Origin: Candidatus Parcubacteria bacterium
GTDB taxonomy: Bacteria > Patescibacteriota > Minisyncoccia > Phycocordibacterales > CAIZLB01
Length of the DNA: 64,000 nucleotides
Reading direction: 5' to 3'
NCBI GenBank assembly: GCA_043760135.1
Contig: JAYUPL010000007.1
Span: forward strand, 64,106-128,105
The stretch's first letter is position 1. Each line of letters starts with the position of its first letter. A program made the position numbers and the translations under genes. This document shows positions 362 through 61,429 of the stretch, piece after piece. The notes under the pieces are model-generated. The model was not told where the DNA came from, did not search any database, and was given only the letters and a program-made list of their open reading frames with translations.

Positions 362-457
362 CTTGACTTGGTTTTAGTATTTGTTATTATAACTATATTC
401 CTACATTCGATTCCGAAAGCGAATCAATGATCCAGATATCAAAATCTGGTGACTACA

Positions 458-850
458 TTAAGAAAGCTCTAATAGAGATATTAGTTGCTTTTTTATTTTA
501 GCGAAGTCTCCAATATTTATATATCCAATATAATAATAGAATCGATTAATAGAAATTAATCTGATTTGATTTAACATAATCCAATTCTTTTTATTATTAA
601 TATTATTTAATTCATAAAACCAAGATCCTGAATTTTTCTGTGTTGTTAAGGGTAATATTATACAGGTTTTACTATCTAATTTTTTAAGAATTAGCACAGG
701 ACGAGAAAAATTATCGCCAACTCCATCTTGTTCTTGCCCAATATTTTTACCAATTTTGCACCACCAAATATCCCTTTCTCTAACAAGGATATCCATATCT
801 TTTATAGCTTTCTTTTTTTCATTCCATTCGTCATATATGTTTATATTCAT
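458..850 (-). CDS. MazF/PemK-family endoribonuclease toxin-like protein (solitary)
   Basis: Motifs DIWWCKIG..GQEQDG...RPVLIL and ILPLTTQK...ILNQIRLI align with E. coli MazF (GDLIWVDF..GSEQAGHRPAVVLS; CVPCTTQSKG); paralog of 18412..18774. Confidence 0.6.
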   Translation of the reverse strand: MNINIYDEWNEKKKAIKDMDILVRERDIWWCKIGKNIGQEQDGVGDNFSRPVLILKKLDSKTCIILPLTTQKNSGSWFYELNNINNKKNWIMLNQIRLISINRFYYYIGYINIGDFAKIKKQLISLLELS

Positions 851-862
851 CTAAATATAATA

Positions 863-893
863 CAAAAATTACAATAAAGTATTCTTGAAGAAG
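863..893 (-). promoter_or_regulatory. Conserved upstream element TTCTTCAAGAATACTTTAT (copy 1 of 5), ends 13 nt before the MazF-like start
   Basis: Same core as 18368..18399, 42309..42330, 53704..53734 and 60631..60662. Confidence 0.45.
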
Positions 894-953
894 CTATAAA
901 ATAATTAATATTAAATTACCTTATATTTAAATCGTATTAACAGAAATATAAAT

Positions 954-1889
954 TCATATAAGCAAATTTTTGATTTTATTTTCAAACTCTTCATCTTGTG
1001 TATTAAACCAAACAATCTTCTCCTTTAATTCTTTATTGTTCCTAAACCAGGTTTTTTGCCTTTTGGCATAATGGCAAATCGCAAAATATAATTTTTCTTT
1101 GAACTCGTTCATTGTCAATATGCCTGTCAGTAGATCTGAAATAAATTTATATTCTAAACCTAGCTTTTGTAATTTTTCATGAGTAATTTTATTTTCTTTT
1201 AATAAATTCTCAACCTCCTGAATCATTCCTTGATCCAATCTTTTGTCTATTCTTGTTTGAATTCTTTTTTGTAAAATTTCATACTCAGTATCGAGTCCCA
1301 TAATAATGTTTTCATATTTATCATTAATTTTTATTTCAGGAATATATTTAAGTTCGGTAATAATCTCTATCGCTCGGATAACTCGTCTTTTATTTTTTAT
1401 GTCTATTTTTGAAATATTTGCATCATATTTTTCGGCGAGATTTTTTAATTCATTTTGTAAATATTCTAAACTTTCTTTTTCTAATATTTCTCTCAATTCT
1501 GGATTTTGTTTTGCAGGTGCTCCAGCTATTTCAAAGAGAAGGGCGTTGATATATAAACCTGTACCTCCGCAGACTATAGGGGTAATATTTTTTGATAATA
1601 AATCGTCTATAATTTTATTTGCATCTTGAGCATATTGAAAAACAGAATACTCCTGATCTGGGTTTAGTATGTCCAACATGTGATGAGGTACACCTTTCAT
1701 TTCATCTTTCGTTATTTTTCCAGTGCCGATATCCAAGTGTTTATAAATCTGTCGTGAGTCAGCAGAAATTATCTCGGAATCAAGGTTATATTTTTCTTTT
1801 AACCATAGAGAAATAGACACAGCAAGATCTGATTTACCGATGGCTGTGGGTCCTATTATGCTTATAATTTGAGGTTTTTTTCTGGACAT
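954..1889 (-). CDS. miaA: tRNA dimethylallyltransferase
   Basis: P-loop GPTAIGKS and full-length MiaA-like sequence (QIYKHLDIGTGK, CGGTGLY). Confidence 0.9.
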   Translation of the reverse strand: MSRKKPQIISIIGPTAIGKSDLAVSISLWLKEKYNLDSEIISADSRQIYKHLDIGTGKITKDEMKGVPHHMLDILNPDQEYSVFQYAQDANKIIDDLLSKNITPIVCGGTGLYINALLFEIAGAPAKQNPELREILEKESLEYLQNELKNLAEKYDANISKIDIKNKRRVIRAIEIITELKYIPEIKINDKYENIIMGLDTEYEILQKRIQTRIDKRLDQGMIQEVENLLKENKITHEKLQKLGLEYKFISDLLTGILTMNEFKEKLYFAICHYAKRQKTWFRNNKELKEKIVWFNTQDEEFENKIKNLLI

Positions 1890-1932
1890 GTATCTTATTT
1901 TTATACTATATTTCTGCTATAATTCAAACTAT

Positions 1933-4686
1933 ATGAAAAAATTCCTAAAAATCTCAATCCTTGCGATTTCATTATTTATTTTCAACAGAGCCGAGGCCAC
2001 TGATGCCATTGTTGGAAATATTGAGCTACAAACAACCATTTTCCAAGGTATTGGAAATACTCCGAGGCAATCTGTTGTGGTGGGGACCAAACTGTATGTT
2101 ATGAATGCAGGTTCTCACAATGTGTCTGTTGTTGACACAACTACGAATGAGGCAGTTGCGATGATTACTATCCCTGGTTTTACCCCTACTCCTGGATTTA
2201 TTATTGCTGTTGGTACAAAAGTGTATGTGCTTAATACTTCAACTAGTGATGTGAGTATTATAGACACAGTAACTGATACTGTCACTCAAACTATCACCAT
2301 TGGAGGTCTTCCTGCGCATGCAACTCTTGTTGGATCAAAATTGTACATTACGAATAATGGATCTGACAATGTCAGTGTGCTTGACACGGCTACGGACACC
2401 ATAACAGACACAGTATCTGTTGGATCAAATCCTCTATCTTCAACATTGGTTGGCACCTCAACTTTGTATGTAAATAATTACGGCGGTTTTAGTGTGTCCG
2501 TAATAAATACAAACACTAATACTGTAACTGATACTATTACTGTAGGGGATTCTCCTATTAGTTCAACACTTGTGGGCACAAAACTATATGTAAATAATCA
2601 GAACAGTGGAGGTTCTGTTTCCGTGATCAATACAACAACGAACACAGTTACTTCTACGTTAACAGGAACCGTGATAGGGCCTATTTCTTCAACACTGGTT
2701 GGTACCTCAACTTTGTATGTAAATAACCACGGTAGTTCGACTGTCTCTGTAATCAATACAAATACTGATACAATAAGTCAAACAATAAATATTGTTCGTT
2801 CCGCACCCACATTTTCCACACTAGTTGGTACCAAGCTCTACGTGGGCACTCAAGAATTAGATGTTAATAGTTCAAGTACTGTGGTTATTATTAATACAAC
2901 AAACAATACAGTGGTAGAAAATGTGTCTGTTGGAGGAGGTCCTTTGAGTCAAACCTTGGTGGGTACAAAGCTGTATACAAACAATGCTAACAGCGGTGTT
3001 CACAATGTCAGTGTACTCGACACAGTTACTGACACTGTTATTGCTACAATACCTTCATACAGAGCACTTGCACCAGAAGCTCAGTTTTCAACCGTAATAG
3101 GTACAAAGCTGTACGTGAATAACTCAGGTTCAACTGTGGTAACTGTTGTTGATACATTGACGGATACTATTTTGCAAAATATAACGGTTGGTACTGGACC
3201 ACTAAACTCTTTACTGGTGGGTACGAGACTATATGTCAATAATTATCTCTCCAACAATGTTTCAGTTGTTGATGTAAATACAAATACGGTCATAGCAACT
3301 ATTCCAGTTGGTGGTAATCCAAATGATCTAGTACTGTCTGGTACGAAATTGTATATAAATAATTCTGATTCTGGAACTATAACTGTGATTGATACAACAA
3401 ATAATACAGTTCTCACAACTGTTACAGTTGGTACGTATCCATCGCACCCAACCCTACTTGGCACCAAACTGTATGTTCACAATTTTTATTCGAACACTGT
3501 TTCTGTGATTGATACTGCAACTGATACAGTTGTGCAAACTATAGCTGGTTTCAGTTACCCTCGTTCTTCAACATATGTAAATGGAAAATTATATGTAAGT
3601 AATGGTGGTGGTAATAATTTAAAAATTATTGATCCTAATACAAATACGATTGTTCAAACTATTGCAGTAGGTGAGAGTCCAATGAAATCAACATTATTGA
3701 ATGGAATGTTGTATGTAAATAACTTTGATTCAAACTATATTTCTGTTGTAAATCCTATAACAAATACTGTAACTCAAATCATTCCAAGTGTGGGTGTAAA
3801 CTCTGTGTATATAAACTCTTCTAATAGTAAGCTCTATGTTGCTGGTGCAGATTCGAATCTTGTTATTATAGATTTATCAAATAATGCAATTGTTCAGACT
3901 ATTCTTATTGATGGATATCCTGCATCGGCAAATATTATGGGTACAAAAATGTATGTGAATAAGTATGACTCAGAACTTACTATAATCCAGTTAGATGCAC
4001 CTGATGTTATTTCAACAGTAAATGGCTCAGCTCTGACTATTATTTATCCTCAAACTTTATCTACTTCATCGATTCCTAGTTTATCAAATTTTACCTTTGG
4101 GAGTCATGGTATTCAGGCTATTGCCATAGGGGGTAATCAGGTTAATCTAACATTGTCATCTCCAGTTACTCCTACAGAGGATTTCTCAGTTACTTATACT
4201 GTTCCTGTCGTTAATCCGTTACAAGATGTACTTGGAAATAACCTTGCGCCGATAATTGCAAAACCTGTTATTAATCTTACACCATCTACTGTCTCAAGTT
4301 CCGCGTCAGGAGGCTCAAGTGGTGGTGGAAGTGGTGGTGGAAGTGGTGGTGGATATGTCGCAGCTAATTTACCAAAAATAGTAAATGCTACATCAACCAA
4401 TGTTATAGCAAGTTCTTCGCTCGCTTGTCCTTACTTTACACAGAATTCAAAACAAGGAAGTAAAAATTTAGAAGTGATTAAAATAAAAAAATTCTTGAAT
4501 GAATTTTCAAAAGAAAAACTAAATATAAATTCAAATGTGTATGACCTAGCCCTACTTAATGCAGTGAAAAGATTTCAAGTAAAATATAAAGCCCAAATAT
4601 TGACTCCTTTAAAACTTAAATATGGTACAGGTTTATGGTATGCATCTACGAAAGCTCAGGCTAATAAGGTGGTGGGTTGTAGGTAA
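1933..4686 (+). CDS. Secreted/cell-surface protein with about 20 YVTN-type beta-propeller repeats, a Gly/Ser linker and a C-terminal peptidoglycan-binding-like domain
   Basis: Signal peptide MKKFLKISILAISLFIFNRAEA; reiterated about 40-aa units (LYV.N.GS..VSVIDT.T.TV..TI.VG..P..TLVGTK); linker SGGSSGGGSGGGSGGG; C-terminus (VYDLALLNAVKRFQVKYK...TGLWY) resembles PG_binding_1. The track ORF starts at 1888, but MKKFL at 1933 is the likely start. Confidence 0.7.
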   Translation: MKKFLKISILAISLFIFNRAEATDAIVGNIELQTTIFQGIGNTPRQSVVVGTKLYVMNAGSHNVSVVDTTTNEAVAMITIPGFTPTPGFIIAVGTKVYVLNTSTSDVSIIDTVTDTVTQTITIGGLPAHATLVGSKLYITNNGSDNVSVLDTATDTITDTVSVGSNPLSSTLVGTSTLYVNNYGGFSVSVINTNTNTVTDTITVGDSPISSTLVGTKLYVNNQNSGGSVSVINTTTNTVTSTLTGTVIGPISSTLVGTSTLYVNNHGSSTVSVINTNTDTISQTINIVRSAPTFSTLVGTKLYVGTQELDVNSSSTVVIINTTNNTVVENVSVGGGPLSQTLVGTKLYTNNANSGVHNVSVLDTVTDTVIATIPSYRALAPEAQFSTVIGTKLYVNNSGSTVVTVVDTLTDTILQNITVGTGPLNSLLVGTRLYVNNYLSNNVSVVDVNTNTVIATIPVGGNPNDLVLSGTKLYINNSDSGTITVIDTTNNTVLTTVTVGTYPSHPTLLGTKLYVHNFYSNTVSVIDTATDTVVQTIAGFSYPRSSTYVNGKLYVSNGGGNNLKIIDPNTNTIVQTIAVGESPMKSTLLNGMLYVNNFDSNYISVVNPITNTVTQIIPSVGVNSVYINSSNSKLYVAGADSNLVIIDLSNNAIVQTILIDGYPASANIMGTKMYVNKYDSELTIIQLDAPDVISTVNGSALTIIYPQTLSTSSIPSLSNFTFGSHGIQAIAIGGNQVNLTLSSPVTPTEDFSVTYTVPVVNPLQDVLGNNLAPIIAKPVINLTPSTVSSSASGGSSGGGSGGGSGGGYVAANLPKIVNATSTNVIASSSLACPYFTQNSKQGSKNLEVIKIKKFLNEFSKEKLNINSNVYDLALLNAVKRFQVKYKAQILTPLKLKYGTGLWYASTKAQANKVVGCR

Positions 4687-5079: not shown

Positions 5080-5679
5080 ATGAAAAGAATAATAATAACA
5101 ATAATACTATTTGTAGTCATAGCTCTAGGGGTAATCCTATATAGAGGTATGTCTGATAACACATTTAAGGATGTATCAGGAGAAACTGATGCAGCCCTTA
5201 TAGCTAAGAGCTTTATAGATAAAATGATTCCTCACCATGAAGGGGCTGTTGCTTCGTCTTTGATTGTTATGAACGATTTGGGCATAACAGAATCTAAGGT
5301 TAGAGTGCTTGCTGCGAATATAGTTGACTCACAAACTTTTGAAATAGCAAAAATGAAAAGTATGTACGCGGAATATCTTGGTAGTGAATATCCTGCATCA
5401 ACAACTCATCATACTATGTCTGCAATTGATGGTTTGAAAGGAGATGTACTGGGTCGAGCATATGCAACTGCAATGATTACTCATCATGAAGATGCTATTA
5501 AGATGTCTAAAGATTATATAAAATTGGTTGATAAGTTTAAAAAAGATAGTGAGGTAAAAGAGGAAGGTTTAACTGTTTCAAACAATCACCCTGCTCTAGA
5601 GTTAACTTATGAGTTGGCAAAACAAATCATCGATACACAAGAAAAGGAGATTGAACAAATGAAAACTTGGTATAAGTAA
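5080..5679 (+). CDS. DUF305-family (ferritin-like, His-rich) membrane-anchored protein
   Basis: N-terminal TM; duplicated MIPHHEGA / MITHHEDAI motifs characteristic of DUF305. Confidence 0.7.
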   Translation: MKRIIITIILFVVIALGVILYRGMSDNTFKDVSGETDAALIAKSFIDKMIPHHEGAVASSLIVMNDLGITESKVRVLAANIVDSQTFEIAKMKSMYAEYLGSEYPASTTHHTMSAIDGLKGDVLGRAYATAMITHHEDAIKMSKDYIKLVDKFKKDSEVKEEGLTVSNNHPALELTYELAKQIIDTQEKEIEQMKTWYK

Positions 5680-5703
5680 AACCCTCGTAAAAAATAAAAA
5701 AGT

Positions 5704-5738
5704 CGCGGTCCCTGTAAGGGTCCGCGCTTTTGTTTATT
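5704..5738. terminator. Rho-independent bidirectional terminator (CGCGGTCCC-tgtaa-GGGTCCGCG followed by TTTTGTTTATT, A-run upstream)
   Basis: GC-rich hairpin between convergent genes. Confidence 0.6.
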
Positions 5739-5745
5739 ATATCGA

Positions 5746-6174
5746 CTACATCTGAACTGCTTGTTGAATGCCAATTCTTTCACGATCACAAATCATAATC
5801 AAGACATGTCGTTCAAAGTCGCTTAAGCGATGGTGAAGGATCTCATCTTGCTGGTGCCACAGGGAATTGATTGAAGGCGTAAGGTCGTTTGTTGCGAATT
5901 CTTCTGCGGTGTAGATGAAAACAACTTTGCCTCCGTTGTGTAGGATCCCTTGATGCTTCAAACATTCAGGGGAGGTTAGGATGTCGCACCTGTACAATTC
6001 ATCGCACACCATTTGACGAATATTAACACTACCTGTATCAACATCGCAAGTTGTGTTAAATCGGAATGTTCCCCATTTACCTTCATTATTGGTATTGAGA
6101 AGAATTCTCCCAGCCTTGTCGATAACAAAGACCATCATGGAGGTTGTCCATGGAAAATGATTGATTGGTTCCAT
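5746..6174 (-). CDS. Hypothetical protein (possibly a degenerate NUDIX-like fold)
   Basis: ORF only; weak GKWG..F motif; no clear NUDIX box. Confidence 0.35.
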   Translation of the reverse strand: MEPINHFPWTTSMMVFVIDKAGRILLNTNNEGKWGTFRFNTTCDVDTGSVNIRQMVCDELYRCDILTSPECLKHQGILHNGGKVVFIYTAEEFATNDLTPSINSLWHQQDEILHHRLSDFERHVLIMICDRERIGIQQAVQM

Positions 6175-7675: not shown

Positions 7676-8056
7676 TTATATACTACTTTTCACTCTAAAG
7701 AGTACAATTTTTGTGATGAGATCATATGGAATCAATTTATCATCAATAGGAAATTGGACTGCACCTTTTGATGTTTTGTATTTTGATAATTTTTTTTTGA
7801 ATTTAGTCATAGCTGATGGAGTGGGGTAGAATCCAATATGATTTTGGTACGCAGTGAAATGAACAAGATTTTCATTTAAGTAGTATGTTGGCATTCCGTA
7901 TGATATTTTTTCTATTGCTTTAGGTGCAGCTTTTTTTATGGTGGTCCGGATTTTCTTGAGAATTTTTTGTGTTGAGGTGGGGAAGGTGGAGATGTATTCA
8001 GGGATTGTTGAATATGTTTGCATACAAAAATTATACCACATAATATATTTTGCCAT
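7676..8056 (-). CDS. DUF1801 (YdhG/YdeI-like) domain protein
   Basis: Pattern PEYISTFP...ISYGMPTY...LVHFTAYQNHIGFYP...KGAVQFP; true start may be the internal MQTYS (8023). Confidence 0.55.
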   Translation of the reverse strand: MAKYIMWYNFCMQTYSTIPEYISTFPTSTQKILKKIRTTIKKAAPKAIEKISYGMPTYYLNENLVHFTAYQNHIGFYPTPSAMTKFKKKLSKYKTSKGAVQFPIDDKLIPYDLITKIVLFRVKSSI

Positions 8057-8061
8057 CTGGT

Positions 8062-8078
8062 GAACTAAGGTTTACAAT
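8062..8078 (+). promoter_or_regulatory. Candidate Cheo/SOS-type box GAAC-taag-GTTT overlapping a TACAAT -10, 8 nt upstream of the umuD ATG
   Basis: Near-palindrome GAACnnnnGTTY adjacent to a -10 hexamer. Confidence 0.3.
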
Positions 8079-8085
8079 ATACTCA

Positions 8086-8517
8086 ATGCGCGTTATTGAT
8101 TATAAAAAAACAACATATAAACCCATCCCTTTGGTATCCTCATACGTCAAAGCTGGTTTTGCTTCGCCTGCAGATGATTACACAGAGCGAGTGATTGATA
8201 TCAATGATTTATTCCAAGTTGATGAATCAACATCTTTTTATGTTCGGGCTGAAGGTCAGTCTATGAAAAATTCAGGTATTATCCCAGAAGACATTTTATG
8301 TGTTCGAAAAGACCTTGAACCTATCGATGGAGATATTGTCATCGCCGCCATTGATAATGAGTTCACGGTAAAAACATTTCGTCGTAAGGAAAACAGTATT
8401 TTCTTCGAAGCATCGAACGAAGATTTTCCAAACATTATTCCGGTTGAAGGACAGGAGGTGCAAGTGTGGGGAGTTGTGACAGGATTAGCGCGAGTATTAA
8501 AGAGAAACAAAAAATGA
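8086..8517 (+). CDS. umuD: Translesion polymerase V accessory subunit UmuD (S24 LexA-like peptidase)
   Basis: GFASPADDY...RVIDINDL...YFVRAEGQSMKNSGI..DIL.V......GDIVIAAIDNEFTVK aligns with UmuD; stop overlaps the umuC start (ATGA). Confidence 0.75.
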   Translation: MRVIDYKKTTYKPIPLVSSYVKAGFASPADDYTERVIDINDLFQVDESTSFYVRAEGQSMKNSGIIPEDILCVRKDLEPIDGDIVIAAIDNEFTVKTFRRKENSIFFEASNEDFPNIIPVEGQEVQVWGVVTGLARVLKRNKK

Positions 8518-9866
8518 AAATAAAACTTTTTGCACCCATCGATTGTTCATCTTTTTATTGCTCATGCGAGCGCGTCTTTCGTCCTGAACTGAAAGATAGA
8601 TCTATTTGTGTGTTATCCAACAATGATGGTTGTGTTATTTCTTTAACGCCCGAAGTAAAAAGTTTAGGCATACGCATCGGTACGCCATTTTTCAAAGTAC
8701 GCGATATGTTGGCGAAAAATAAAGTTGTTGTATTTTCATCTAATTATTGTCTGTACGGAGACATGAGTCGAAGGGTGATGCAGGTGATAAAACAATTTAG
8801 CGACAAGGTGGAAGTGTATTCTATCGATGAGGCGTTTATAGAAATAGAAGCAGAGGATGAGGATATTGAGAATGAAAGAATCAGATTACAAAAGATAGCA
8901 GAGGAAATTCATCATACTGTTATGAGAGGAACGGGTATTCCTGTTCGTGTATCTATTGCAGAAACAAAAACATTGGCCAAGGTAGGGAGTGATGTCACAA
9001 AGAAATTATTGAAGGAGAAAAAGATTCCTACCGTATGCTTTTGGAATCATCCTGATAAAATTGTTTCCATGAAAACTACATCTATAGGTGATGTCTGGGG
9101 TGTAGGGCGCGGTTGGGCAGATAAGTTGCAGGATATTGGAATATACACAGCCTATAATTTATTTGAAGCAGATAATATGATGATTGGTAAAAAATATAGT
9201 GTAATTCTTCAAAGAACTACATTCGAACTACAGGGTGTTATTTGTAATCCTATCGAGTCAGAAAATTCACAAAGAAAGAGCTTGATACGAAGTCGAATGT
9301 TTGGGTATAAGTTAACTGATCCAAAATTGATACTACAGGCTGTCTCAACTCATGTTGCTCGAGGTGCAGAAAAATTAAGAGAGGAGAAGCTGGTAACAGG
9401 AGTTCTCTCTGTTGCTATAACCACAGGGCGGCATTCTACAAATAAAAATCTAGGACGTGCATCAATAGAATTATCAAAGCCAACAAATGATACACTTGTC
9501 TTAAGCAAGATTGCTGCTGATTTGTTTAAGAAATGTTATGCAGAAAAAAATGAAAAAGGGGAAGTATATCAATATGTAAAAGCTGGAGTTGTGTTTTATG
9601 ACTTGAAAAGAGATGATACGCAAACACATTCTTTCTTTGAATTTATAAATACCGAGAAAAATGAAATAATGGATACGTTGGATAAGATAAATAAAAAATT
9701 TGGTACCAATGCGATCGTGGTGGCGTCCCAAGGAACTCCGGATAAGTTGAGAGGGAATAGTGCAGCCAATAAGAAAGAGTCGACGGAGTGGTCCATGAAG
9801 AGAAATCATATGAGTCCAAGGTATACGACAGTGTGGAGGGAGTTGATGAAGGTGAAGATTGGGTAA
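8514..9866 (+). CDS. umuC: Y-family DNA polymerase V catalytic subunit UmuC
   Basis: N-terminus MKIKLFAPIDCSSFYCSCERVFRPELKDRSICVLSNNDGCVIS matches the UmuC signature (DCNSFYASCE..VLSNNDGCVIA); SIDEAF. Confidence 0.85.
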   Translation: MKIKLFAPIDCSSFYCSCERVFRPELKDRSICVLSNNDGCVISLTPEVKSLGIRIGTPFFKVRDMLAKNKVVVFSSNYCLYGDMSRRVMQVIKQFSDKVEVYSIDEAFIEIEAEDEDIENERIRLQKIAEEIHHTVMRGTGIPVRVSIAETKTLAKVGSDVTKKLLKEKKIPTVCFWNHPDKIVSMKTTSIGDVWGVGRGWADKLQDIGIYTAYNLFEADNMMIGKKYSVILQRTTFELQGVICNPIESENSQRKSLIRSRMFGYKLTDPKLILQAVSTHVARGAEKLREEKLVTGVLSVAITTGRHSTNKNLGRASIELSKPTNDTLVLSKIAADLFKKCYAEKNEKGEVYQYVKAGVVFYDLKRDDTQTHSFFEFINTEKNEIMDTLDKINKKFGTNAIVVASQGTPDKLRGNSAANKKESTEWSMKRNHMSPRYTTVWRELMKVKIG

Positions 9867-17375: not shown

Positions 17376-18344
17376 ATGCAAAAGTTTTTATTTATTAAAC
17401 CCGCTCACATAGATGATGAAGCAACTCGTTACAACGTGCAGGAAGATATTGTATCGCTCGAACAAACTCTCATAAAGGCGTATAAGGATATTGATATAGA
17501 AATATGTGCAGTAACAGCTGACTCTGAATGGTTAATGCACGGTAGAAAAATTACTCCTGAAATTAAATTAAAAAAATATGACAAGGTGTTTGTGTTTGTA
17601 CACAACATTGACAAGGCTGTTGACAATATAAAAGAAAATACAAAATTGTTTGCAAAGCAGGCTACTTTTCTATACAAGGCTGAGGATGAGATTTTTCATA
17701 ATGCAGAAAAGCTGGAGGAGTTGGTAAGAATAAATAATACTGAAAACTTTAAGATAAAATTCCCCCACCAGATTCATGTGAGCACCAAAGAATATAATGA
17801 AAATGCAACAACCACCAATCAAATAGTTGCTAAGTTCATGAGGCATTTATTTTTACCAATTCACACACTCGAGACAAAACATTCAAAGCATAAGAATCAT
17901 AAAAATATAAACCTTTCGTACAACGCTCAAGAGTTTGTGGAAAACATCGATAGTCTGCGTCACAAATTTGACGAATTAACTTTTCGTGAATATATCGAAG
18001 GGTACCAAGTGTATGTGGCTGTTATTCCTGATTTTAAAGGGGAAGAATTTTATACATTTATTCCACTTATAGAAAAAGATGTAAACGGTATTCCAATGTT
18101 TGAGGTTGCACCACTTTCAATGCTTGAAAAAGAAGGGGTTAGAAATATTGTTAAAAACATTTCTAAAATATCATTTCAGCGCCAACCTGTTGTGTACAAG
18201 CTTTCGGTTCATAAAAAGAGAGGAATCTTTGTTCAACATTCTTCATCATTGTTAACGTATTTGTTGTATTACCCTGACTTTGTATTTGAGTCCGTGGGGT
18301 CTTTAGGGTTGGATATAGAGCAATTTTTGGCGAAGATTTTTTAG
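17376..18344 (+). CDS. Hypothetical protein with weak ATP-grasp (D-Ala-D-Ala-ligase-like) C-terminal similarity
   Basis: REYIEGYQVYVAVIPDFKGEEFYTF and a C-terminal segment reminiscent of Ddl; no Gly-rich ATP loop. Confidence 0.3.
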   Translation: MQKFLFIKPAHIDDEATRYNVQEDIVSLEQTLIKAYKDIDIEICAVTADSEWLMHGRKITPEIKLKKYDKVFVFVHNIDKAVDNIKENTKLFAKQATFLYKAEDEIFHNAEKLEELVRINNTENFKIKFPHQIHVSTKEYNENATTTNQIVAKFMRHLFLPIHTLETKHSKHKNHKNINLSYNAQEFVENIDSLRHKFDELTFREYIEGYQVYVAVIPDFKGEEFYTFIPLIEKDVNGIPMFEVAPLSMLEKEGVRNIVKNISKISFQRQPVVYKLSVHKKRGIFVQHSSSLLTYLLYYPDFVFESVGSLGLDIEQFLAKIF

Positions 18345-18367
18345 AAATAATTAATCTTTTCTTTCAG

Positions 18368-18399
18368 ATTTCTTTATGAGAACTTTATAAGGTGTTTGG
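18368..18399 (+). promoter_or_regulatory. Conserved upstream element ATTTCTTTATGAGAACTTTATAAGGTGTTTGG (copy 2 of 5), ends 13 nt before the MazF-like start
   Basis: Near-identical to 53704..53734. Confidence 0.45.
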
Positions 18400-18411
18400 T
18401 AGGATTATTGG

Positions 18412-18774
18412 ATGAATGAAAATAACACAGACAAAGAAAAAGATTTAATTGTAAAACTAGGTGAAATATTTTGGTGCTATTTGGGTGTAAACGTTGGTTC
18501 AGAACAAAACGGAAGTGGAACTGATAAAACTAGGCCAGTATTAATTATTAATAAGTTTTCAGAGAAATTTTTTCTCGGAGCACCATTGACTAGTAAAAAA
18601 CATAAAGGCGATTGGTATGTAAAAATATCCTTTAATGATTCCTGTGTAATATTAAATCAAGTTAGGCCTATTGATATAAAAAGATTAATAGATAAAGTTG
18701 GGCAAATATCCGAAGAAGATCTAGAAAATATTTTATATAAATATGTTGATCTTATAAAACACAAAAAACACTAA
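18412..18774 (+). CDS. MazF/PemK-family endoribonuclease toxin-like protein (solitary)
   Basis: GEIFWCYLGVNVGSEQNGSG...RPVLIIN; APLTSKKHKGDWYVKI; ILNQVRPIDIKRL; paralog of 458..850. Confidence 0.6.
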   Translation: MNENNTDKEKDLIVKLGEIFWCYLGVNVGSEQNGSGTDKTRPVLIINKFSEKFFLGAPLTSKKHKGDWYVKISFNDSCVILNQVRPIDIKRLIDKVGQISEEDLENILYKYVDLIKHKKH

Positions 18775-19017
18775 ATAAATAGTGTTTTTTGAGCTAAACA
18801 AAAGTATTTTCATACTTTCGGCTGGGTAGTCGACCCCGAAACTGTAGCTTCATTTTAGCAAATAAGTTTAACTTGTCAAATTTATATAAATCGTCACTCG
18901 ACCAAAGTCGAAAGGATTGATAAAACTTCAACCCTCAAAGGTGATATTATTGTACCAAAAATATAATCTCTGTCAAACCTCGAAAAACCAATAAATCTAT
19001 GCTAAAATATTGTCTAT

Positions 19018-21981: not shown

Positions 21982-21995
21982 TAAATTTATTTATT

Positions 21996-22073
21996 TCATT
22001 CTGTTTCAGTCCTCGACTCTTGTCTAGGACAAAAGGTCTGCGAAGCGCTTTGCCTAGGGTAAAGTGACATTCC
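21996..22073 (+). repeat. Intergenic structured repeat, copy A (shorter copy of the 40593..40688 element, opposite orientation)
   Basis: Shares GTTTCAGTCCTCGAC...GTCTGCGAAGCGCTTTGCC(C)TAGG..AAAGTG.CATTCC with the reverse complement of copy B. Confidence 0.7.
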
Positions 22074-22092
22074 ATAAATAAATGTAAGAGAA

Positions 22093-35554: not shown

Positions 35555-35590
35555 ATAACTTTCTTTAAAATACATGTTATAATACTCCGC

Positions 35591-37982: not shown

Positions 37983-38069
37983 AAAGACACGTGAGAAGAA
38001 AATGTTTGTCGAACATAAAGCTTCACACGCGATAATCATTTCTAAATAATTTTTAAATAAAATAAATAT

Positions 38070-38204
38070 ATGGCAGTAAAAAAAGCAGCAAAAAAAGTTG
38101 TAAAAAAAGCAGTTAAAAAAGCAGCTCCTAAAAAAGTTGTAAAAAAAGCAGCTCCTAAAAAAGCAGTTAAAAAAACTGTAAAAAAAACAGCAAAAAAAAG
38201 ATAG
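38070..38204 (+). CDS. Small (44 aa) Lys/Ala-rich histone H1/Hc1-like basic protein; not in the ORF track
   Basis: MAVKKAAKKVVKKAVKKAAPKKVVKKAAPKKAVKKTVKKTAKKR; promoter upstream, strong terminator downstream. Confidence 0.5.
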   Translation: MAVKKAAKKVVKKAVKKAAPKKVVKKAAPKKAVKKTVKKTAKKR

Positions 38205-40579: not shown

Positions 40580-40592
40580 CAAACTTATTTAC

Positions 40593-40688
40593 GGAATGAC
40601 ACTTTGCCCTAGGCAAAGCGCTTCGCAGACCCGCCTACCCTGAGGGTAGGTGTTCCTAGAAAATGGGTCGAGGACTGAAACGGAATGG
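40593..40688 (-). repeat. Intergenic structured repeat, copy B (contains the perfect hairpin CCTACCC-tga-GGGTAGG absent from copy A)
   Basis: Reverse complement matches 21996..22073; bracketed by the inverted 11-mers CAAACTTATTT / AAATAAGTTTG. Confidence 0.7.
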
Positions 40689-40739
40689 AGCAAATAAGTT
40701 TGATTGATAAATCAATAGAATTTTGGTACTATACTAAAC

Positions 40740-41113: not shown

Positions 41114-41290
41114 GGTGTAGGGAAGAAATCTGAAAGATTTTTAGGGCGAGAAAAGCTTTGTGATGTTTTCGAAAACTCGTAGAGTTTAAGAAAACCACAA
41201 AGGTCTACTGGTCCTGTAACCTCAAGGGTCATAATATAAGGACCGAGATCCCGGCCTGTAAAACAAAAAAATTTATGCTAAAATTACTAC

Positions 41291-41730: not shown

Positions 41731-42255
41731 CTACATATTCTTCACCTTCAAACTGGCCTTTCTCTCTCTGTCGATTCTCGGAAGTCTCAATGTGAGCATT
41801 CCTTGTGATTCTGTAGCTTCAGCTCTATCAATATCAACTTCATGTGGTAGTTTTACTGTTCTTGAAAATGCTCCCCAATACAGTTCTCTATAATGATAGT
41901 CATCTTCAGCAATAGTTTTCTCATCTTTTCTCTCACCTCTAATGGTTAACATATCTCTTGATAGAGAAATATCAATATCTTCTTTTCGCACTCCTGGAAT
42001 CATAGTTTTAACTATAACCTCAACAGCCGTCTCAAAAAGATCTATGCCAAGTTGTCCTTCAATTGCAATTGGAATGTCCATATCATCCTCATTGTCATCT
42101 GTATCGTCATCTCTATCATCCTCGTCGATGTCTCTTGTGTTTAGACTATTAAAAGATTTTCGGTTTACTTGGCTCATTTTTTCTATAGCCTCATCATCAT
42201 CTTCTTTAAAGCTACCAGTCAATCTTTGTAAAAATGATTTGCGTGTATTGTTCAT
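41731..42255 (-). CDS. Hsp20/alpha-crystallin small heat-shock protein with acidic N-terminal extension
   Basis: DLFETAVEVIVKTMIPGVRKEDIDISL..DMLTIRGERK...G.F.R...LP..VD...A....GMLTLRLPR. Confidence 0.8.
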   Translation of the reverse strand: MNNTRKSFLQRLTGSFKEDDDEAIEKMSQVNRKSFNSLNTRDIDEDDRDDDTDDNEDDMDIPIAIEGQLGIDLFETAVEVIVKTMIPGVRKEDIDISLSRDMLTIRGERKDEKTIAEDDYHYRELYWGAFSRTVKLPHEVDIDRAEATESQGMLTLRLPRIDRERKASLKVKNM

Positions 42256-42308
42256 ATATCTATTTTAAATGTTTAGAGGCCGATGTGCAAGTGCTTTGGC
42301 TTCTTTAG

Positions 42309-42330
42309 ACTTTCTTTATTAGAACTTCAT
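42309..42330 (+). promoter_or_regulatory. Conserved upstream element ACTTTCTTTATTAGAACTTCAT (copy 3 of 5), upstream of the DUF3800 gene
   Basis: Same core as the other four copies. Confidence 0.4.
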
Positions 42331-42353
42331 CTCACTATTGTTATTATTTTTTG

Positions 42354-42911
42354 ATGACCAAAATCATATACATCGATGAATCAGGAATAAGCTCTAAGAT
42401 GGGGCATAGTGTACACGTGTCTTTATATATTGAGTTTAACAACCGTTTAGATTTATCAAACGAAATTACAAAGATAGAAAAACAACTTAAAATATCATAT
42501 ACACAATGGACCGAAATGCCCTGGAAGTTAAGATTAAAATTTGCTGAAAAGATAAAAGACTTAGACTTTGAGGTAAAAGCACTTGTTTACAGTAATCCTA
42601 TTTTACCGGAAGCAGGTTTAAGGATATCGTTGTTTGAGTTTGCTAAAGATAGTGGTATAGCAAGTATTTTTATTGATGGAAAAAAGAATAAGGGTTATGA
42701 GAAAGAATTAAAGGCCTTATTACGAAATAGGGGGATAAAAGTGTATGATCTAAGAATAATTGATGATAAAAAGGAGTCGTTAATACGAATTGCAGACTTT
42801 ATGGCTGGATTAATAAGGTCTTATACAGATTTTTCAAATAAGTACAGTATATTCATCTTTAATCTGTTAAAAGACAAAATTGAAATAGATAAAGCAAAAA
42901 TGCCCGATTAA
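42354..42911 (+). CDS. DUF3800-family protein
   Basis: IYIDESG N-terminal motif...LIRIADFMAG; the track ORF starts at 42351 (TTG), ATG at 42354. Confidence 0.5.
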   Translation: MTKIIYIDESGISSKMGHSVHVSLYIEFNNRLDLSNEITKIEKQLKISYTQWTEMPWKLRLKFAEKIKDLDFEVKALVYSNPILPEAGLRISLFEFAKDSGIASIFIDGKKNKGYEKELKALLRNRGIKVYDLRIIDDKKESLIRIADFMAGLIRSYTDFSNKYSIFIFNLLKDKIEIDKAKMPD

Positions 42912-43042
42912 GGGCATTTTCACTCCATGCGACAGGGCGCCGGCGCAGAGGATAAGGACTTTTACATCCACGGTCTAACGGACCTTTTTCGCCTCCTGCC
43001 TGTTACTCTTACTATTTTATCAAATCTGTAAAACCTGTCAAG

Positions 43043-43813
43043 CTAGATCCTACATTTTATTTGTTTAAGATTTTCAAGGCTTAAAATTATAAAAATAATT
43101 ACAATCCAAGTTGCTAAAAATACGAATATTATTGAATTTACAGATGTCAGTAAGAATATATTAAAGAACCAGTGAGCTAAAGTTGCTACGAGTAACCCCA
43201 GCCAGATATATATTTCACGAACAAGTGGTCGTTTACAAAATGAATAGCCGATACACAGTGCTAATAATCCACTTGAGGCAACGTGCAATAGATTTGCTCC
43301 AATAAATCTAATGTTAGAATTTATTATTAAATCTATTGTCTGTCCTGCCAATAGAGGGTTTATCAAATAAAATATGTTTTCCATAGCTGCAAATCCAATA
43401 GCTGCTGTCATTAGGTATAAAAAGGCATCTATTGGCTCATTAAAGAGCTTTGTTCTAAAGAAAATAACATAGGCACAAGCGAATTTTACAAATTCTTCAA
43501 TAATAACAAAGATTAAATTAACAGTTTTGTAGTTTGTAATATCTATTGTATACCAATTAAAATACCAATTAAACACGTGTTGAAAAAATAGGGAGACAAA
43601 AGCCCCCGCCATACCGAGTAGAAAAGTAATCAGGATGATTTTTCGAGGCTCCTTGTGTTTATTATCTTCATGCATCCAGAACCAGAGCCATATAAGAGAA
43701 GGAATAAGACCTCCAATAAGCGCGTAAAAGAAAACCGTTAAACTGCTGTGGAGTACAGATGCCATTTCATTATATAAGACCATGGAAGTTATTATACAGT
43801 ATCCAAAGACCAA
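43043..43813 (-). CDS. PrsW-family intramembrane protease
   Basis: IIEEFVKF (EExxK) and GFAAMENIFY (FxxxEN) motifs in a multi-TM protein; start may be the internal MASVL. Confidence 0.65.
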   Translation of the reverse strand: MVFGYCIITSMVLYNEMASVLHSSLTVFFYALIGGLIPSLIWLWFWMHEDNKHKEPRKIILITFLLGMAGAFVSLFFQHVFNWYFNWYTIDITNYKTVNLIFVIIEEFVKFACAYVIFFRTKLFNEPIDAFLYLMTAAIGFAAMENIFYLINPLLAGQTIDLIINSNIRFIGANLLHVASSGLLALCIGYSFCKRPLVREIYIWLGLLVATLAHWFFNIFLLTSVNSIIFVFLATWIVIIFIILSLENLKQIKCRI

Positions 43814-53639: not shown

Positions 53640-53703
53640 AATGGAGATAATATACTATTTTTTAAGCCAGAAAGCAATACTTTTATTCGAAGTTTCTTTA
53701 TTA

Positions 53704-53734
53704 TTTCTTTATGAGAACTTTATTGAGGTTTTTC
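53704..53734 (+). promoter_or_regulatory. Conserved upstream element ATTTCTTTATGAGAACTTTATTGAGGTTTTT (copy 4 of 5)
   Basis: Near-identical to 18368..18399; partially duplicated just upstream (GTTTCTTTATTA). Confidence 0.45.
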
Positions 53735-53770
53735 TATGATATATGAATAACAACCAGAAATTTACAAAAA

Positions 53771-54154
53771 ATGAAAAATCTTATTAAAGTCTATTATTCA
53801 CTAGATCAAGGTATTCCTATTGACCATCATTTAGAATTAATCAGGATTCATGATAGTTGCGATATTTATATTTCCAGAAAGGCATTGAAACATTTTGTTG
53901 AAAGCCGAAAAAAAGAGATGATTGAAACCCGTAATCAGAAAGAGATCTGTGATAAGTTATGTTTTGCTGTTAAAAATGTAATTTTTACATATATAAAGTA
54001 TGACAGAATTGAACAATCATCACTAAATAGGTTGATATATATAAAATATTTTAAAAAATTGCGAAATTCCAGTTTAGGTATTGTGGTAGAACGAGTTGAA
54101 GACAGGAGTGAAATTTGTTCAATACATTTCAAGAAACACAAAAAACCACCTTAA
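53771..54154 (+). CDS. Hypothetical small protein, 'ISRKALKHFVESR' family (paralog 1)
   Basis: Paralog of 60741..61085 (HLELIRI...ISRKALKHFVESRKKEM vs FLELVFV...ISRRALKHFVESRSSEM); stop codon lies in a terminator loop. Confidence 0.5.
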   Translation: MKNLIKVYYSLDQGIPIDHHLELIRIHDSCDIYISRKALKHFVESRKKEMIETRNQKEICDKLCFAVKNVIFTYIKYDRIEQSSLNRLIYIKYFKKLRNSSLGIVVERVEDRSEICSIHFKKHKKPP

Positions 54155-54166
54155 AGTGGTTTTTTG
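54139..54166 (+). terminator. Rho-independent terminator (AAAAAACCACC-ttaaa-GTGGTTTTTT), stop codon in the loop
   Basis: Read from the sequence. Confidence 0.7.
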
Positions 54167-54175
54167 TGAGACTTA

Positions 54176-54283
54176 GGATGACGGCAAGGACAAATAATTA
54201 CTTACTTGTGTTTTCATCCATGAGTACGTTGATATTTCTACCAAGTCCGCAGCACAGCCGATTGTTAATTTTCTGTCGTTAAG
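54176..54283 (+). other. Conserved about 110-nt 3' tail (copy 1): GGATGACGGCAA...TTTCATCCATGAGTACGTT...CCAAGTCCGCAGCACAGCCGATTGTTAATTTTCTGTCGTTAAG; possible structured RNA
   Basis: Three conserved blocks shared with 61112..61214; GGATGA/TCATCC form a stem around a variable loop. Confidence 0.4.
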
Positions 54284-54316
54284 TCTTATGTAACAATATT
54301 ATCAAAAAAAATAACC

Positions 54317-54748
54317 TTGTCAATAAAAATGAAAAAAACAACAAATAATGAACAACATGGCTTTATAACCCTATTTTTTATATTGGGGGTATCATTTACT
54401 TTTCTAACCTGGATTTCGTTGAGTTCGGAAAGGGTATTTGGGTACATACGTATAAAGGATGATTTTATTGCATCCAGATCTGTACTACATGATCATATTC
54501 TCTGTGCTGATGCTTTTATTAATATAGTGATTGAATCTCGACATAATTTGAGTTTTAATGGTGGCATCTATAATTTTAAGAGGAATTTGTATTTCGTGGA
54601 TGATTTTTCATGCAATATTAAATCTATAAGCTCAACCCATGAAGATAACACTATTAAGACTGTTTTCTTTACTATTGGTGAATTTCGCTTTGAGTATCAG
54701 TTTAAAAATGGTTTTGTAAACTCTATCAAATCTTTCAATTTATTTTAG
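54317..54748 (+). CDS. Putative minor pilin / pseudopilin-like protein (non-canonical prepilin N-terminus)
   Basis: QHGFITLFFILGVSFTFL hydrophobic N-terminal segment immediately upstream of a canonical type IV pilin. Confidence 0.3.
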   Translation: MSIKMKKTTNNEQHGFITLFFILGVSFTFLTWISLSSERVFGYIRIKDDFIASRSVLHDHILCADAFINIVIESRHNLSFNGGIYNFKRNLYFVDDFSCNIKSISSTHEDNTIKTVFFTIGEFRFEYQFKNGFVNSIKSFNLF

Positions 54749-60562: not shown

Positions 60563-60630
60563 GTTTGGAAAGTTTATAACTACGAAAGTACAATACTGAT
60601 TAAGGATAATTCCAAAGCCATTTTTTTATC

Positions 60631-60662
60631 AATTCTTCAAGAGAACTTTATGTGGTCTTTGG
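60631..60662 (+). promoter_or_regulatory. Conserved upstream element AATTCTTCAAGAGAACTTTATGTGGTCTTTGG (copy 5 of 5)
   Basis: Same core; about 80 nt upstream of paralog 2. Confidence 0.4.
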
Positions 60663-60740
60663 TAAAATTCTTAAATCACTATAAATACAAGCACAATTAA
60701 AAAATTAATAAATGAATATTTTCATTTAAAAACAGGCGAA

Positions 60741-61085
60741 TTGATTGCCGATTTTTTAGAATTGGTATTTGTTTGTAAACTGAACAGTAAAGACGTATCT
60801 ATCTCTAGGAGGGCATTAAAGCACTTTGTGGAGAGTAGGTCTAGCGAAATGGCAGATAGTTACGAAAACAACAGTATCTTGGAAAAGATGTATTACATAA
60901 TAGATAATGTCGAAGATGTGCTCAATATGTATGATGTCTTTCAAACTATGAATGGCAGGTATTATTTTACTAAGCATTATTGGAAACTAGATAAACCCTC
61001 AATAAGAATAGTTTTAGAATTGGTAGATAATCACTTTGAAATAGTTACGATGTATTATAAGAAAACTAAAAACACCACCGAATGA
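60741..61085 (+). CDS. Hypothetical small protein, 'ISRRALKHFVESR' family (paralog 2; TTG start, lacks the N-terminal ~17 aa of paralog 1; possibly degenerate)
   Basis: Paralog of 53771..54154; the frame has no ATG; stop codon in a terminator loop. Confidence 0.4.
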   Translation: MIADFLELVFVCKLNSKDVSISRRALKHFVESRSSEMADSYENNSILEKMYYIIDNVEDVLNMYDVFQTMNGRYYFTKHYWKLDKPSIRIVLELVDNHFEIVTMYYKKTKNTTE

Positions 61086-61099
61086 ACGGTGGTGTTTTT
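61068..61099 (+). terminator. Rho-independent terminator (AAAAACACCACCG-aatgaa-CGGTGGTGTTTTT)
   Basis: Read from the sequence. Confidence 0.7.
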
Positions 61100-61111
61100 A
61101 GTTGTAGTCTG

Positions 61112-61214
61112 GGATGACGGCAACGCCTATTTTTCAATAGACACTTTCATCCATAAGTACTTTGTCTTTCAACAAAGTCCGCAGCAAGCCGATTGGTTAT
61201 TTTCTGTCCTTCAG
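61112..61214 (+). other. Conserved about 105-nt 3' tail (copy 2): GGATGACGGCAA...TTTCATCCATAAGTACTTT...CAAAGTCCGCAGCAAGCCGATTGGTTATTTTCTGTCCTTCAG
   Basis: Block-wise identical to 54176..54283 with variable spacers. Confidence 0.4.
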
Positions 61215-61429
61215 ATTACGTTGTTTATTTTAGCAAAATATATTTTATTGTCAAATTTTGTAAAAATAGCACCCTATAAAAGCGAAAAAGTGCCTGACAC
61301 CGCTTAGGGCACAGGACCTTTTTCTTCTGTGTTTTTATAATATCAAATCTCTGATTGTTGTCAAATTTTACCCCATAAAAAACAAAATCCGACAATGGAG
61401 TTCTTACATTTTTAGTATATAATAGACGC

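Follow-up and report, generated by a model that had tools for sequence, protein, structure and literature searches.

A phased direct-repeat promoter element marks a putative regulon of toxin-plus-small-RNA modules in Parcubacteria-type bacteria

Five copies of a 19-22-base element, TTCTTYAWKARWACTTYAT, stand in front of small accessory genes in a stretch of 64,000 nucleotides from contig JAYUPL010000007.1 of a Candidatus Parcubacteria bacterium (hereafter the window), a 35% GC chromosome segment of a Parcubacteria-type member of the Candidate Phyla Radiation (CPR). We consider it very probable that this is a cis-regulatory promoter element, and its architecture and distribution support the view that modules made of a toxin and a small RNA form, under this element, a regulon of Parcubacteria-type CPR bacteria for which we found no earlier description. 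We also lean, with more reserve, towards an autoregulated orphan response regulator of the OmpR family as the protein that reads it. To our knowledge, almost nothing is known about transcriptional regulation in CPR bacteria, which have very few regulators and cannot be grown alone, and the literature that we searched describes no CPR promoter motif, regulon or lone-toxin system that matches the one presented here.

An earlier, sequence-only reading of the window had reported the five copies, and all of them are indeed present, intergenic and in the orientation of the downstream gene, with cores that start at 892 on the minus strand and at 18370, 42312, 53705 and 60633 on the plus strand. The consensus TTCTTYAWGARWACTTTAT is matched exactly by four of the five, the copy before the DUF3800 gene having two mismatches. 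When up to three mismatches are allowed, the window contains eight matches against 1.18 expected, and none of 100 shuffled versions reaches eight; two of the extra matches, at 18359 and 53694, are a further repeat situated 11 nt upstream of true sites. A 48-nt position weight matrix, for which other genomes supplied most of the sites, gives 40-52 bits to the five sites, 17 bits to the next best position in the 64 kb and at most 6.5 to shuffled windows. A weak motif-like site of 17 bits, at 44770-44805 on the plus strand, consists of TTCTTTATTAATATTTGAT, 11 nt and TATAAT, and lies antisense within a tsaD-like gene (43792-45027); it may be due to chance or be an antisense promoter.

The anatomy of the five sites is rigid: exactly 11 nt separate a 19-nt core from a downstream TAnnAT hexamer (TATTAT, TAGGAT, TATTAT, TATGAT and TAAAAT), with a TGn extension before four of the five, and the geometry of core, 11 nt and TAnnAT is equally fixed in about 60 sites elsewhere. 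It is for this reason that the two MazF copies have the same 13-nt spacing, an identity that had been noticed before and is real. In MazF-A, MazF-B and the DUF3800 gene the ATG follows the -10 by 6 nt, which is the geometry of a leaderless mRNA, and we predict that the mRNAs of these three units are leaderless. The overall range of 13-80 nt between element and gene given by the sequence-only reading therefore has two components, leaderless mRNAs in three cases and leaders of 30-72 nt in the two paralogs.

The CTTTAT direct repeat with a period of one helical turn (11 nt), another feature of the earlier description, also exists and extends further upstream. Among 59 non-redundant sites, CTT(T/C)A is found at +13 from the core start in 100%, at +2 in 98%, at -9 in 47% and at -31 in 25%, with a degenerate TTCTT.AG at about -20. 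Since these peaks fall at 11-nt steps, the element is best described as a series of two to five direct repeats that recur every 11 nt, of which the motif originally noted comprises the two promoter-proximal ones. The repeat reads (T/A)(T/A)CTT(T/C)AT, the array covers about -24 to -75 (counting the A of the ATG as +1) and the proximal pair ends 11 nt upstream of a TG-extended -10, the intervening spacer being unconstrained except for a T-run ending in TG. At one locus (L056, about 5580-5790, minus strand) some 15 units of 11-nt phased CTTTA repeats extend over about 180 nt upstream of a single site.

The general promoter of this organism is a different one. The upstream regions of about 60 window genes reveal a housekeeping promoter of the form TTGACA-N17-TGnTATAAT, and the element is absent from those of the housekeeping genes; this survey and the weight-matrix scan agree that no housekeeping gene in the window carries it, as the sequence-only reading had maintained. 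We have consequently rejected the idea that the element is simply the general sigma-70 promoter, with 16-18 nt between its TTGACA and TGnTATAAT boxes, or its -35/-10 consensus. A scan for that consensus gives 14 strong full matches in the window, all of them away from the element sites; at the latter there is no -35/-10 pair and no TTGACA-like hexamer, but only the -10 half. Because no such pair is called there, the element can be said to occupy the place of the -35 box. The ordinary window promoters are themselves very often located 6-7 nt before the ATG, and most housekeeping genes of the window appear to be leaderless, with TGnTATAAT 6-7 nt before the ATG and no Shine-Dalgarno sequence (e.g. 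19000-19017, 41275-41290 and 35575-35590). A transcribed leader or riboswitch was also considered and rejected: in most sites 6 nt separate the -10 from the start codon, and Rfam gives no match.

The scan of one genome per species yielded at least 115 loci. Among the matches listed, most score low and are chance matches that fall within genes of AT-rich Bacteroidota or Firmicutes, and all of those with at least 39 bits come from metagenome-assembled genomes (MAGs) labelled Parcubacteria, Paceibacteria, Nomurabacteria, Saccharibacteria or Moraniibacteriota, or from unlabelled ones. Several MAGs, such as GFS_1662 and LF-bin-100, have three to six copies. One locus from a "Saccharibacteria" MAG (L081) is 81% identical in DNA to the window and the label on several MAGs is unreliable, so the phylogenetic spread of the element may be narrower than the labels suggest. 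A stricter pattern retrieved 43 metagenome stretches, about 28 of them high-scoring. The viral contigs that were scanned contained low-scoring chance matches only, of no more than 25 bits, and a phage origin was rejected on that ground. Overall there are 63 unique sites of at least 30 bits; in 39 of the 54 sites with a recognisable open reading frame (ORF) the start codon is 2-7 nt after the -10, and in 28 it is exactly 6 nt after it.

The genes behind these sites fall into several families. DUF3800 proteins, in two subtypes and one singleton, account for 15 sites, lone MazF-like proteins for seven, and a family with a predicted RelE/ParE fold, known from the window by its sequence ALKHFVESR, for six. 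OmpR-family response regulators and an unknown 160-aa family follow with four sites each and an unknown 277-aa family with three; two sites each precede a ComM-like protein (ChlI N-domain), a RelB gene followed by a toxin gene, a UPF0102/YraN-like protein, a 140-aa membrane protein and the L050/L091 family. The fixed distance to the -10, the difference from the general promoter and the recurrence before the same gene families and a response-regulator gene all bear out the proposal of a shared operator/promoter, and this recurrence in related genomes makes an unrecognised regulon the natural interpretation.

In the window itself, Pfam confirms the identities first proposed for three of the cargo genes, two PemK/MazF and one DUF3800, the latter family having been reported to be RNase-H2-like and to provide the effector domain of type VII retrons (PMC7736814). 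The two ALKHFVESR paralogs have no Pfam match; their predicted alpha/beta fold, with N-terminal helices on a three- to four-stranded antiparallel sheet, is that of the RelE/ParE (BECR-fold) proteins, and they have predicted similarity to solved RelE/ParE/BrnT structures. The five genes had been called unrelated, which in functional terms they are not, since all have predicted nuclease or toxin folds (MazF, RNase-H-like DUF3800, RelE/ParE-like), and all are predicted to be without a protein antitoxin. In particular, no mazE/pemI gene is found upstream of MazF-like A or B, the 103- and 67-nt upstream spacers holding only the operator. A type II MazEF operon was ruled out, as both genes start 6 nt after the -10 and have an RNA gene downstream. 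PADLOC gave weak DUF3800-type matches and no other defence-system match.

With respect to the protein that reads the element, an OmpR-family response regulator (Response_reg plus Trans_reg_C) lies directly behind it at loci L018, L013 and L022. At L018 the element has 43 bits and the regulator is an orphan between obg and rnc. At L013 and L022 the element, of about 23 bits and with CTTCAT half-sites, precedes a response regulator-histidine kinase pair, and we have treated these two sites as a related box of paralogous systems rather than as the same operator; more distant paralogous operons of this kind have CTTCAT-N5-CTTCAT 10-11 nt before a -10. Such a regulator is within 8 kb in five of 26 CPR loci. 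An independent test employed regulator orthologues chosen by protein search alone. The contigs of the six L018-type orthologue groups all have the obg-regulator-rnc synteny, and five of the six carry the element about 100 nt upstream of the regulator start, with no other match in those loci: 48.5 bits in P0022 (L178-180), 46.6 in P0037 (L181-182), 35.4 in P0047 (L196-197), 32.6 in P0035 (L183-185) and 26.1 in P0112 (L198-199). The sixth group, P0020 (L176-177), has a decayed copy below threshold. One MAG, JBGSHK01, has both a regulator with the element (L197, P0047) and a DUF3800 unit with the element (L070). The regulator is an ordinary member of the OmpR/PhoB family that reaches none of the NCBIfam equivalog cut-offs. 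Among solved structures it is closest to DrrD, M. tuberculosis PhoP and BasR/PmrA, and the entries for PhoP and BasR include multi-chain complexes that we take to be transcription-activation complexes.

Two further observations concern these regulators. Their mRNAs are predicted not to be leaderless, having a 5' untranslated region of about 60 nt (L018, L178-L185, L196-L197), and some 10-35 nt downstream of the -10 of their promoter the palindrome TATTAAC-N7-9-GTTAATA is conserved; it could serve as another operator or fold into a hairpin in the RNA. In the Moraniibacteriota locus L074 (5714-5925) the element lies between a response-regulator gene and a 35-aa ORF (MKKVIKKVLMSKKARNASAVASLAVAVSVVNAPWG) that is followed by a histidine kinase with multiple transmembrane segments, a layout that recalls peptide-autoinduced two-component systems.

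Class II activation of the PhoB/PmrA type employs direct repeats of 6-7 bp with an 11-bp period (10-11 bp between centres), placed across the -35 region at a distance of 10-11 bp from the -10, and the regulator's own gene has such a box; the PmrA (BasR) box is YTTAAK-N5-YTTAAK. The present element has the same plan: CTTYAT-N5-CTTYAT in all sites, hexamer/heptamer direct repeats with an 11-bp period that replace the -35 (the -10 being deduced from sequence) and end about 10-11 bp before the -10, additional boxes that can be stacked upstream, and, in relatives, a box at the gene of the candidate regulator. It differs from the pho box in its half-site, CTT(T/C)AT, in the predicted leaderless mRNAs and in an orphan candidate regulator below the equivalog cut-offs. 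The pho and PmrA regulons, moreover, consist of phosphate or envelope genes, whereas the putative targets here are toxin-like nucleases. By analogy, the element would be the operator of a promoter that has no -35 box and depends on an activator. The activator would be a regulator of the OmpR/PhoB family, the candidates being the conserved orphan that relatives encode between obg and rnc or a paralogous regulator-kinase pair. As a dimer or oligomer it would bind the repeats head to tail and provide the contact to RNA polymerase that a -35 box would otherwise make, in the manner of PhoB and PmrA at their own boxes. The predicted transcription start is 7 nt after the -10, mostly at the A of the start codon, and the regulator would activate its own gene too.

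Several points weigh against this proposal. The entire case is made from sequence; the regulator gene can be a member of the regulon without being its regulator; and the window plus 10 kb of extra left flank (74 kb in all) contains no response regulator, so that co-occurrence of regulator and element in the window's own genome is putative. None of the approximately 28 high-scoring metagenome sites precedes a response regulator either, and the link to the regulator consequently comes from one orthologue family and the two weaker sites at L013 and L022. The same architecture, at a promoter devoid of a -35 box, might then be read by a different protein, the response-regulator gene being merely one of the targets: either a repressor, or an alternative sigma factor, of the extracytoplasmic function (ECF) type or another, that recognises AACTTTAT as its -35, or the Sigma70_r4 plus HARE-HTH protein encoded in the window at 55727-56779. 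In its favour, AAC is the best-conserved triplet of the proximal half-site and resembles the -35 of ECF-sigma promoters, and the TG-extended -10 could permit transcription without an activator, in which case the repeats could equally be a repressor operator. However, sigma factors leave three to five phased upstream repeats unexplained, the -10 is of the housekeeping TG-TAnnAT type rather than the ECF type, and the Sigma70_r4/HARE-HTH gene sits in a ribosomal/rpoA operon with an ordinary promoter. Neither a sigma nor a repressor gene is found behind any of the roughly 60 sites, while an OmpR-type regulator recurs there. We thus regard a different reader as rather unlikely and retain the OmpR-family regulator as the better candidate.

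The units also have a conserved second end, which had escaped the sequence-only reading. The 3' flanks of the cargo genes have a GC-richer structured stretch and then, on the opposite strand, a near-perfect TTGACA-16-TGnTAnnAT promoter aimed at the cargo gene. It is present in 31 of 47 units, mostly with a score of 11-12 out of 13. Half of the 14 strong promoters of the window have no ORF behind them, and all seven of these are at the 3' flanks of the five motif units, five being cognate and two orphans (18976 and 61364). The predicted RNAs, about 60-145 nt long, run into bidirectional terminators that extend over the stop codon of the cargo gene. Compensatory base changes are seen in them, and their families are cargo-specific: the DUF3800-A RNA and the ALKHFVESR RNA occur only beside their own protein genes or a deleted copy (L033). 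Units with non-toxin-like cargo (response regulator, ComM-like, UPF0102, RelB plus toxin) have no such RNA. Rfam, run on the whole window at the gathering score, detects tRNAs only, and Rfam 15 at E<=1 gives nothing relevant, including DUF3800-I to -XI, for window positions 42150-43150 and loci L123, L121, L020 and L138. The earlier suggestion that the element is the conserved end of a family of cassettes was well founded, with the addition of a conserved 3' end in the form of a convergent small-RNA gene under its own consensus promoter.

What these RNAs do can be approached by comparison. No significant duplex is predicted between the RNA and the 5' end of the toxin mRNA (z between +0.6 and -2.1), and the classic 5'-targeting mechanism of type I toxin-antitoxin systems is accordingly not supported. 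The RNAs could act by 3' overlap or by binding the protein, and it is possible that they are RNA antitoxins or partners of the cargo. The regulon would then consist mainly of toxin-like nucleases (DUF3800, lone MazF, RelE/ParE-fold), each of them with a cargo-specific small RNA behind it that converges on it from a constitutive promoter and probably counteracts it; with the RNA constitutive and the toxin under the operator, it would be the operator that decides when the toxin outruns the RNA.

The convergent antitoxin RNAs of the Bacillus subtilis type I systems txpA/RatA and bsrG/SR4 overlap the 3' end of the toxin gene. Like them, our units have an mRNA and an RNA that converge on a shared bidirectional terminator, with a strong constitutive RNA promoter; unlike these systems, whose toxins are small membrane peptides, the cargo here is a nuclease-fold protein of 110-190 aa, and complementarity to the mRNA 5' end is not significant. 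The type III systems (ToxIN, CptIN, TenpIN), in which ToxN has a Kid/MazF-like fold, pair an endoribonuclease-type toxin with a dedicated, toxin-specific non-coding RNA and no protein antitoxin, which is the composition predicted here. Their RNA, however, is a tandem array of short repeats upstream in the same operon, set off from the toxin gene by a terminator and processed by the toxin, in contrast to a single structured copy that is downstream, convergent and under its own consensus promoter. The toxin folds of our units also include RelE/ParE-like and RNase-H-like DUF3800 proteins, and neutralisation by the RNA is putative. Membership in the ToxIN-like type III group was thus rejected, the likeness being confined to the pairing of protein and RNA. 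Finally, structured RNAs beside DUF3800 genes, in either orientation, have been reported as motifs DUF3800-I to -XI (Weinberg et al. 2017, PMC5737381). The window RNA is likewise a structured RNA beside a DUF3800 gene; it differs from those motifs in matching no Rfam 15 model at E<=1, and analogous RNAs here also accompany MazF-like and RelE-fold genes.

Comparison of syntenic loci in related genomes, one of the checks that the sequence-only reading had recommended, shows that corresponding chromosomal slots share the promoter and differ in the cargo behind it. After rpsI, where the window has paralog 2, locus L095 has a 264-aa DUF3800 protein; homology between the two breaks off precisely where the -10 ends (60668) and sets in again at 61262, and the window retains an orphan RNA of the DUF3800 type in this slot. 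After the tRNA cluster, the window has paralog 1, L141 and L077 the membrane protein that is the window's second gene there (54317-54748), and L033 a remnant. The slot after 17376-18344 contains MazF-B in the window and DUF3800 in L148, and the slot at 21982-22092, which is empty in the window, is filled by a DUF3800 unit in L151 and L158, a case of presence versus absence. Just beyond 63978, outside our view since the window ends at 64000, L138, L120, L081 and L110 have three different cargos between them. Locus L123 has two units in tandem. The units thus behave like exchangeable cassettes, and the element appears to mark their conserved 5' end.

Such exchange also bears on two explanations that need no regulon. 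The element might be a mobile promoter, or a curved-DNA, UP-like module without any dedicated regulator, that was copied with, or ahead of, horizontally acquired accessory genes and gives them constitutive expression: T-rich repeats in phase are able to bend DNA, close relatives have exchanged cargo, and the -10 can be the exact point at which homology ends. However, specific positions outside A/T tracts (C3, C14 and the AT ends) are nearly invariant across MAGs labelled Parcubacteria, Nomurabacteria, Moraniibacteriota and Saccharibacteria (some of these labels being unreliable), while the 11-nt spacer and the flanks diverge freely, which argues for selection on a recognition sequence. The element also precedes a response-regulator gene that is syntenically stable and vertically inherited. 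On balance a regulator-free module seems improbable.

Alternatively, the element could be primarily a recombination site, the end of a mobile cassette like an integron attC/attI site or a transposon end, its promoter-like appearance being secondary. The hypervariable slots with the same element and different cargo (after rpsI, after the tRNA cluster and after 17376-18344, at 21982-22092 and beyond 63978), the tandem units of L123 and the orphan RNA genes left as remnants would all suit such a site, and the small, mostly single-gene, toxin-rich accessory units in variable slots, exchanged between close relatives, do resemble integron cassettes. Yet an attC site consists of imperfect inverted repeats (R''-L''/L'-R') at the 3' end of a promoterless cassette, near an integrase and attI, whereas the repeats here are direct, lie at the 5' end of the unit and are fused to a -10; an integron attC or gene cassette was rejected for this reason. 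The units differ further in that each would have its own regulated promoter and in being scattered between housekeeping genes instead of forming arrays; no integrase, transposase or recombinase was found among the annotated neighbours, where not every window gene was scanned. Moreover, the distance to the -10 and the start codon is fixed to the nucleotide, the element also precedes non-mobile genes in conserved synteny (the regulator between obg and rnc), and it was not found in the viral contigs scanned. We consider a recombination site very improbable. Chance similarity of AT-rich intergenic DNA, or a general promoter, has a negligible probability, for although the genome is 35% GC and a loose pattern also matches many unrelated AT-rich genomes, no shuffled window attains the observed count, 23 bits separate the fifth site from the next best, the matches in other phyla are with few exceptions of at most 30 bits and mostly inside ORFs, and the general promoter differs from the element.

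If the regulon is real, it offers a concrete and testable CPR example with one operator sequence, one candidate regulator and defined target families. Annotations usually treat lone MazF, RelE-fold and DUF3800 genes as orphan toxins or unknowns; the regulon suggests instead that they belong to modules of two parts, a protein and an RNA. Were this true, RNA-antitoxin systems would gain new toxin folds and a new, convergent gene layout, and the known RNA motifs beside DUF3800 genes would be joined by modules whose RNA is outside all Rfam models. The slot-wise exchange of cargo behind a conserved promoter indicates how streamlined genomes may plug acquired genes into an existing circuit. A bolder version, to which we give only tentative credence, is that this lineage of ultra-small Patescibacteria keeps a battery of intracellular nuclease toxins with three unrelated folds (MazF, RelE/ParE-like and RNase-H-like DUF3800), each toxin with a convergent structured RNA to check it and all under one response regulator via a pho-box-like operator; a single signal would then fire many of them at once, for programmed dormancy or abortive infection, and the modules would be swapped as cassettes in fixed slots.

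The five units of the window are organised as follows. In unit 1, on the minus strand, the operator (874..903, 40.2 bits) comprises the 19-nt core TTCTTCAAGAATACTTTAT (892..874) and a weak third repeat upstream; 11 nt separate the core from the TG-extended -10, TATTAT (857..862), which in turn stands 6 nt ahead of the ATG of MazF-like A (458..850), a PemK_toxin protein of 130 aa, predicted leaderless, with no adjacent protein antitoxin gene. Its convergent small-RNA gene (363..470, plus strand) has a -35 TTGACT at 363-368 and a -10 TGnTATTAT at 385-390, and the predicted RNA, with two hairpins, runs from about 397 across the MazF-A stop codon. In unit 2, on the plus strand, three 11-nt phased repeats, TTCTTTCAGAT/TTCTTTATGAG/AACTTTAT, form the operator (18359..18388, 47.7 bits), and the TG-extended -10, TAGGAT (18400..18405), is 6 nt before the ATG of MazF-like B (18412..18774), a PemK_toxin protein of 120 aa, again predicted leaderless. 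The opposing small-RNA gene (18765..18879, minus strand; -35 TTGACA at 18879-18874, -10 TAAAAT at 18857-18852) is predicted to give an RNA that starts at about 18845 and reaches as far as a bidirectional terminator at the stop codon of MazF-B. Beside it, at 18885..18976 on the minus strand, is one of the two orphans, an ORF-less consensus promoter (-35 at 18976-18971, -10 at 18954-18949) that leads into a short structured region and may be what is left of an older module.

Unit 3, also on the plus strand, has the operator TTCTTTAGACT/TTCTTTATTAG/AACTTCAT (42301..42330, 41.4 bits) and a TG-extended -10, TATTAT (42342..42347), with no -35/-10 pair called, 6 nt before the ATG at 42354 of the DUF3800 protein (42354..42911; 185 aa from the ATG; RNase-H-like family, retron type VII effector domain). 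Its small-RNA gene (42895..43041, minus strand; -35 TTGACA at 43041-43036, -10 TAAAAT at 43019-43014) has a predicted GC-rich RNA of about 105 nt (43007..42900) with six compensatory pairs, the terminal hairpin of which overlaps the DUF3800 stop. In unit 4 (plus strand) the operator TTCTTTATTAT/TTCTTTATGAG/AACTTTAT (53694..53723) attains 52.0 bits; the -10 TATGAT (53735..53740) is followed by a 30-nt leader and by ALKHFVESR paralog 1 (53771..54154), 127 aa with a predicted RelE/ParE/BrnT-like toxin fold, and the convergent small-RNA gene (54140..54323, minus strand; -35 at 54323-54318, -10 at 54301-54296) has a predicted RNA of about 145 nt (54289..54144). Unit 5 (plus strand) has the operator TTTTTTATCAA/TTCTTCAAGAG/AACTTTAT (60622..60651, 45.4 bits), a TG-extended -10 TAAAAT (60663..60668) and, after a 72-nt leader that is kept in orthologues, ALKHFVESR paralog 2 (60741..61085), 114 aa from a TTG start. 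The small-RNA gene opposite (61064..61254, minus strand; -35 at 61254-61249, -10 at 61232-61227; predicted RNA about 61220..61076) ends in a 17-bp terminator stem (61103-61064) that overlaps the paralog-2 stop. The second orphan small-RNA gene (61262..61364, minus strand; -35 at 61364-61359, -10 at 61342-61337) is adjacent and of the type that accompanies the 264-aa DUF3800 protein filling this slot in L095.

The remainder of the window contains miaA, mreB, PBP2, uvrC, S16, gyrA, frr, the rpsM-rpoA operon and tRNAs, among other genes. The protein at 55727-56779 (plus strand), 350 aa long, has an N-terminal sigma-70 region 4 and a C-terminal HARE-HTH (RNA polymerase delta-like) domain, an unusual architecture for a transcription factor; it is encoded immediately ahead of rpsM-rpsK-rpsD-rpoA and is conserved in relatives. 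An umuD-like S24 peptidase without a helix-turn-helix domain and a umuC-like polymerase form an operon (8050-9866, plus strand) with an imperfect palindrome, TTTGCATACAAA, in its promoter, and the window has no lexA gene. A 932-aa beta-propeller repeat protein with 120-nt repeats is encoded at 1888-4686, and a Lys/Ala-rich repeat with a 12-nt period (38066-38194) lies upstream of the called ORF 38258, which has a TTG start. There are also short repeated or inverted non-coding elements at 4785-4853/41151-41219, 47595-47646/51011-51062 and 4935-4968/14330-14363/54826-54866, two of which adjoin tRNA genes. Finally, an intergenic element of about 100 nt with internal hairpins occurs twice in inverted orientation, at 21983-22081 (plus) and 40585-40701 (minus), the copies being 86-94% identical, and part of this repeat also precedes a motif unit in the relative L110.

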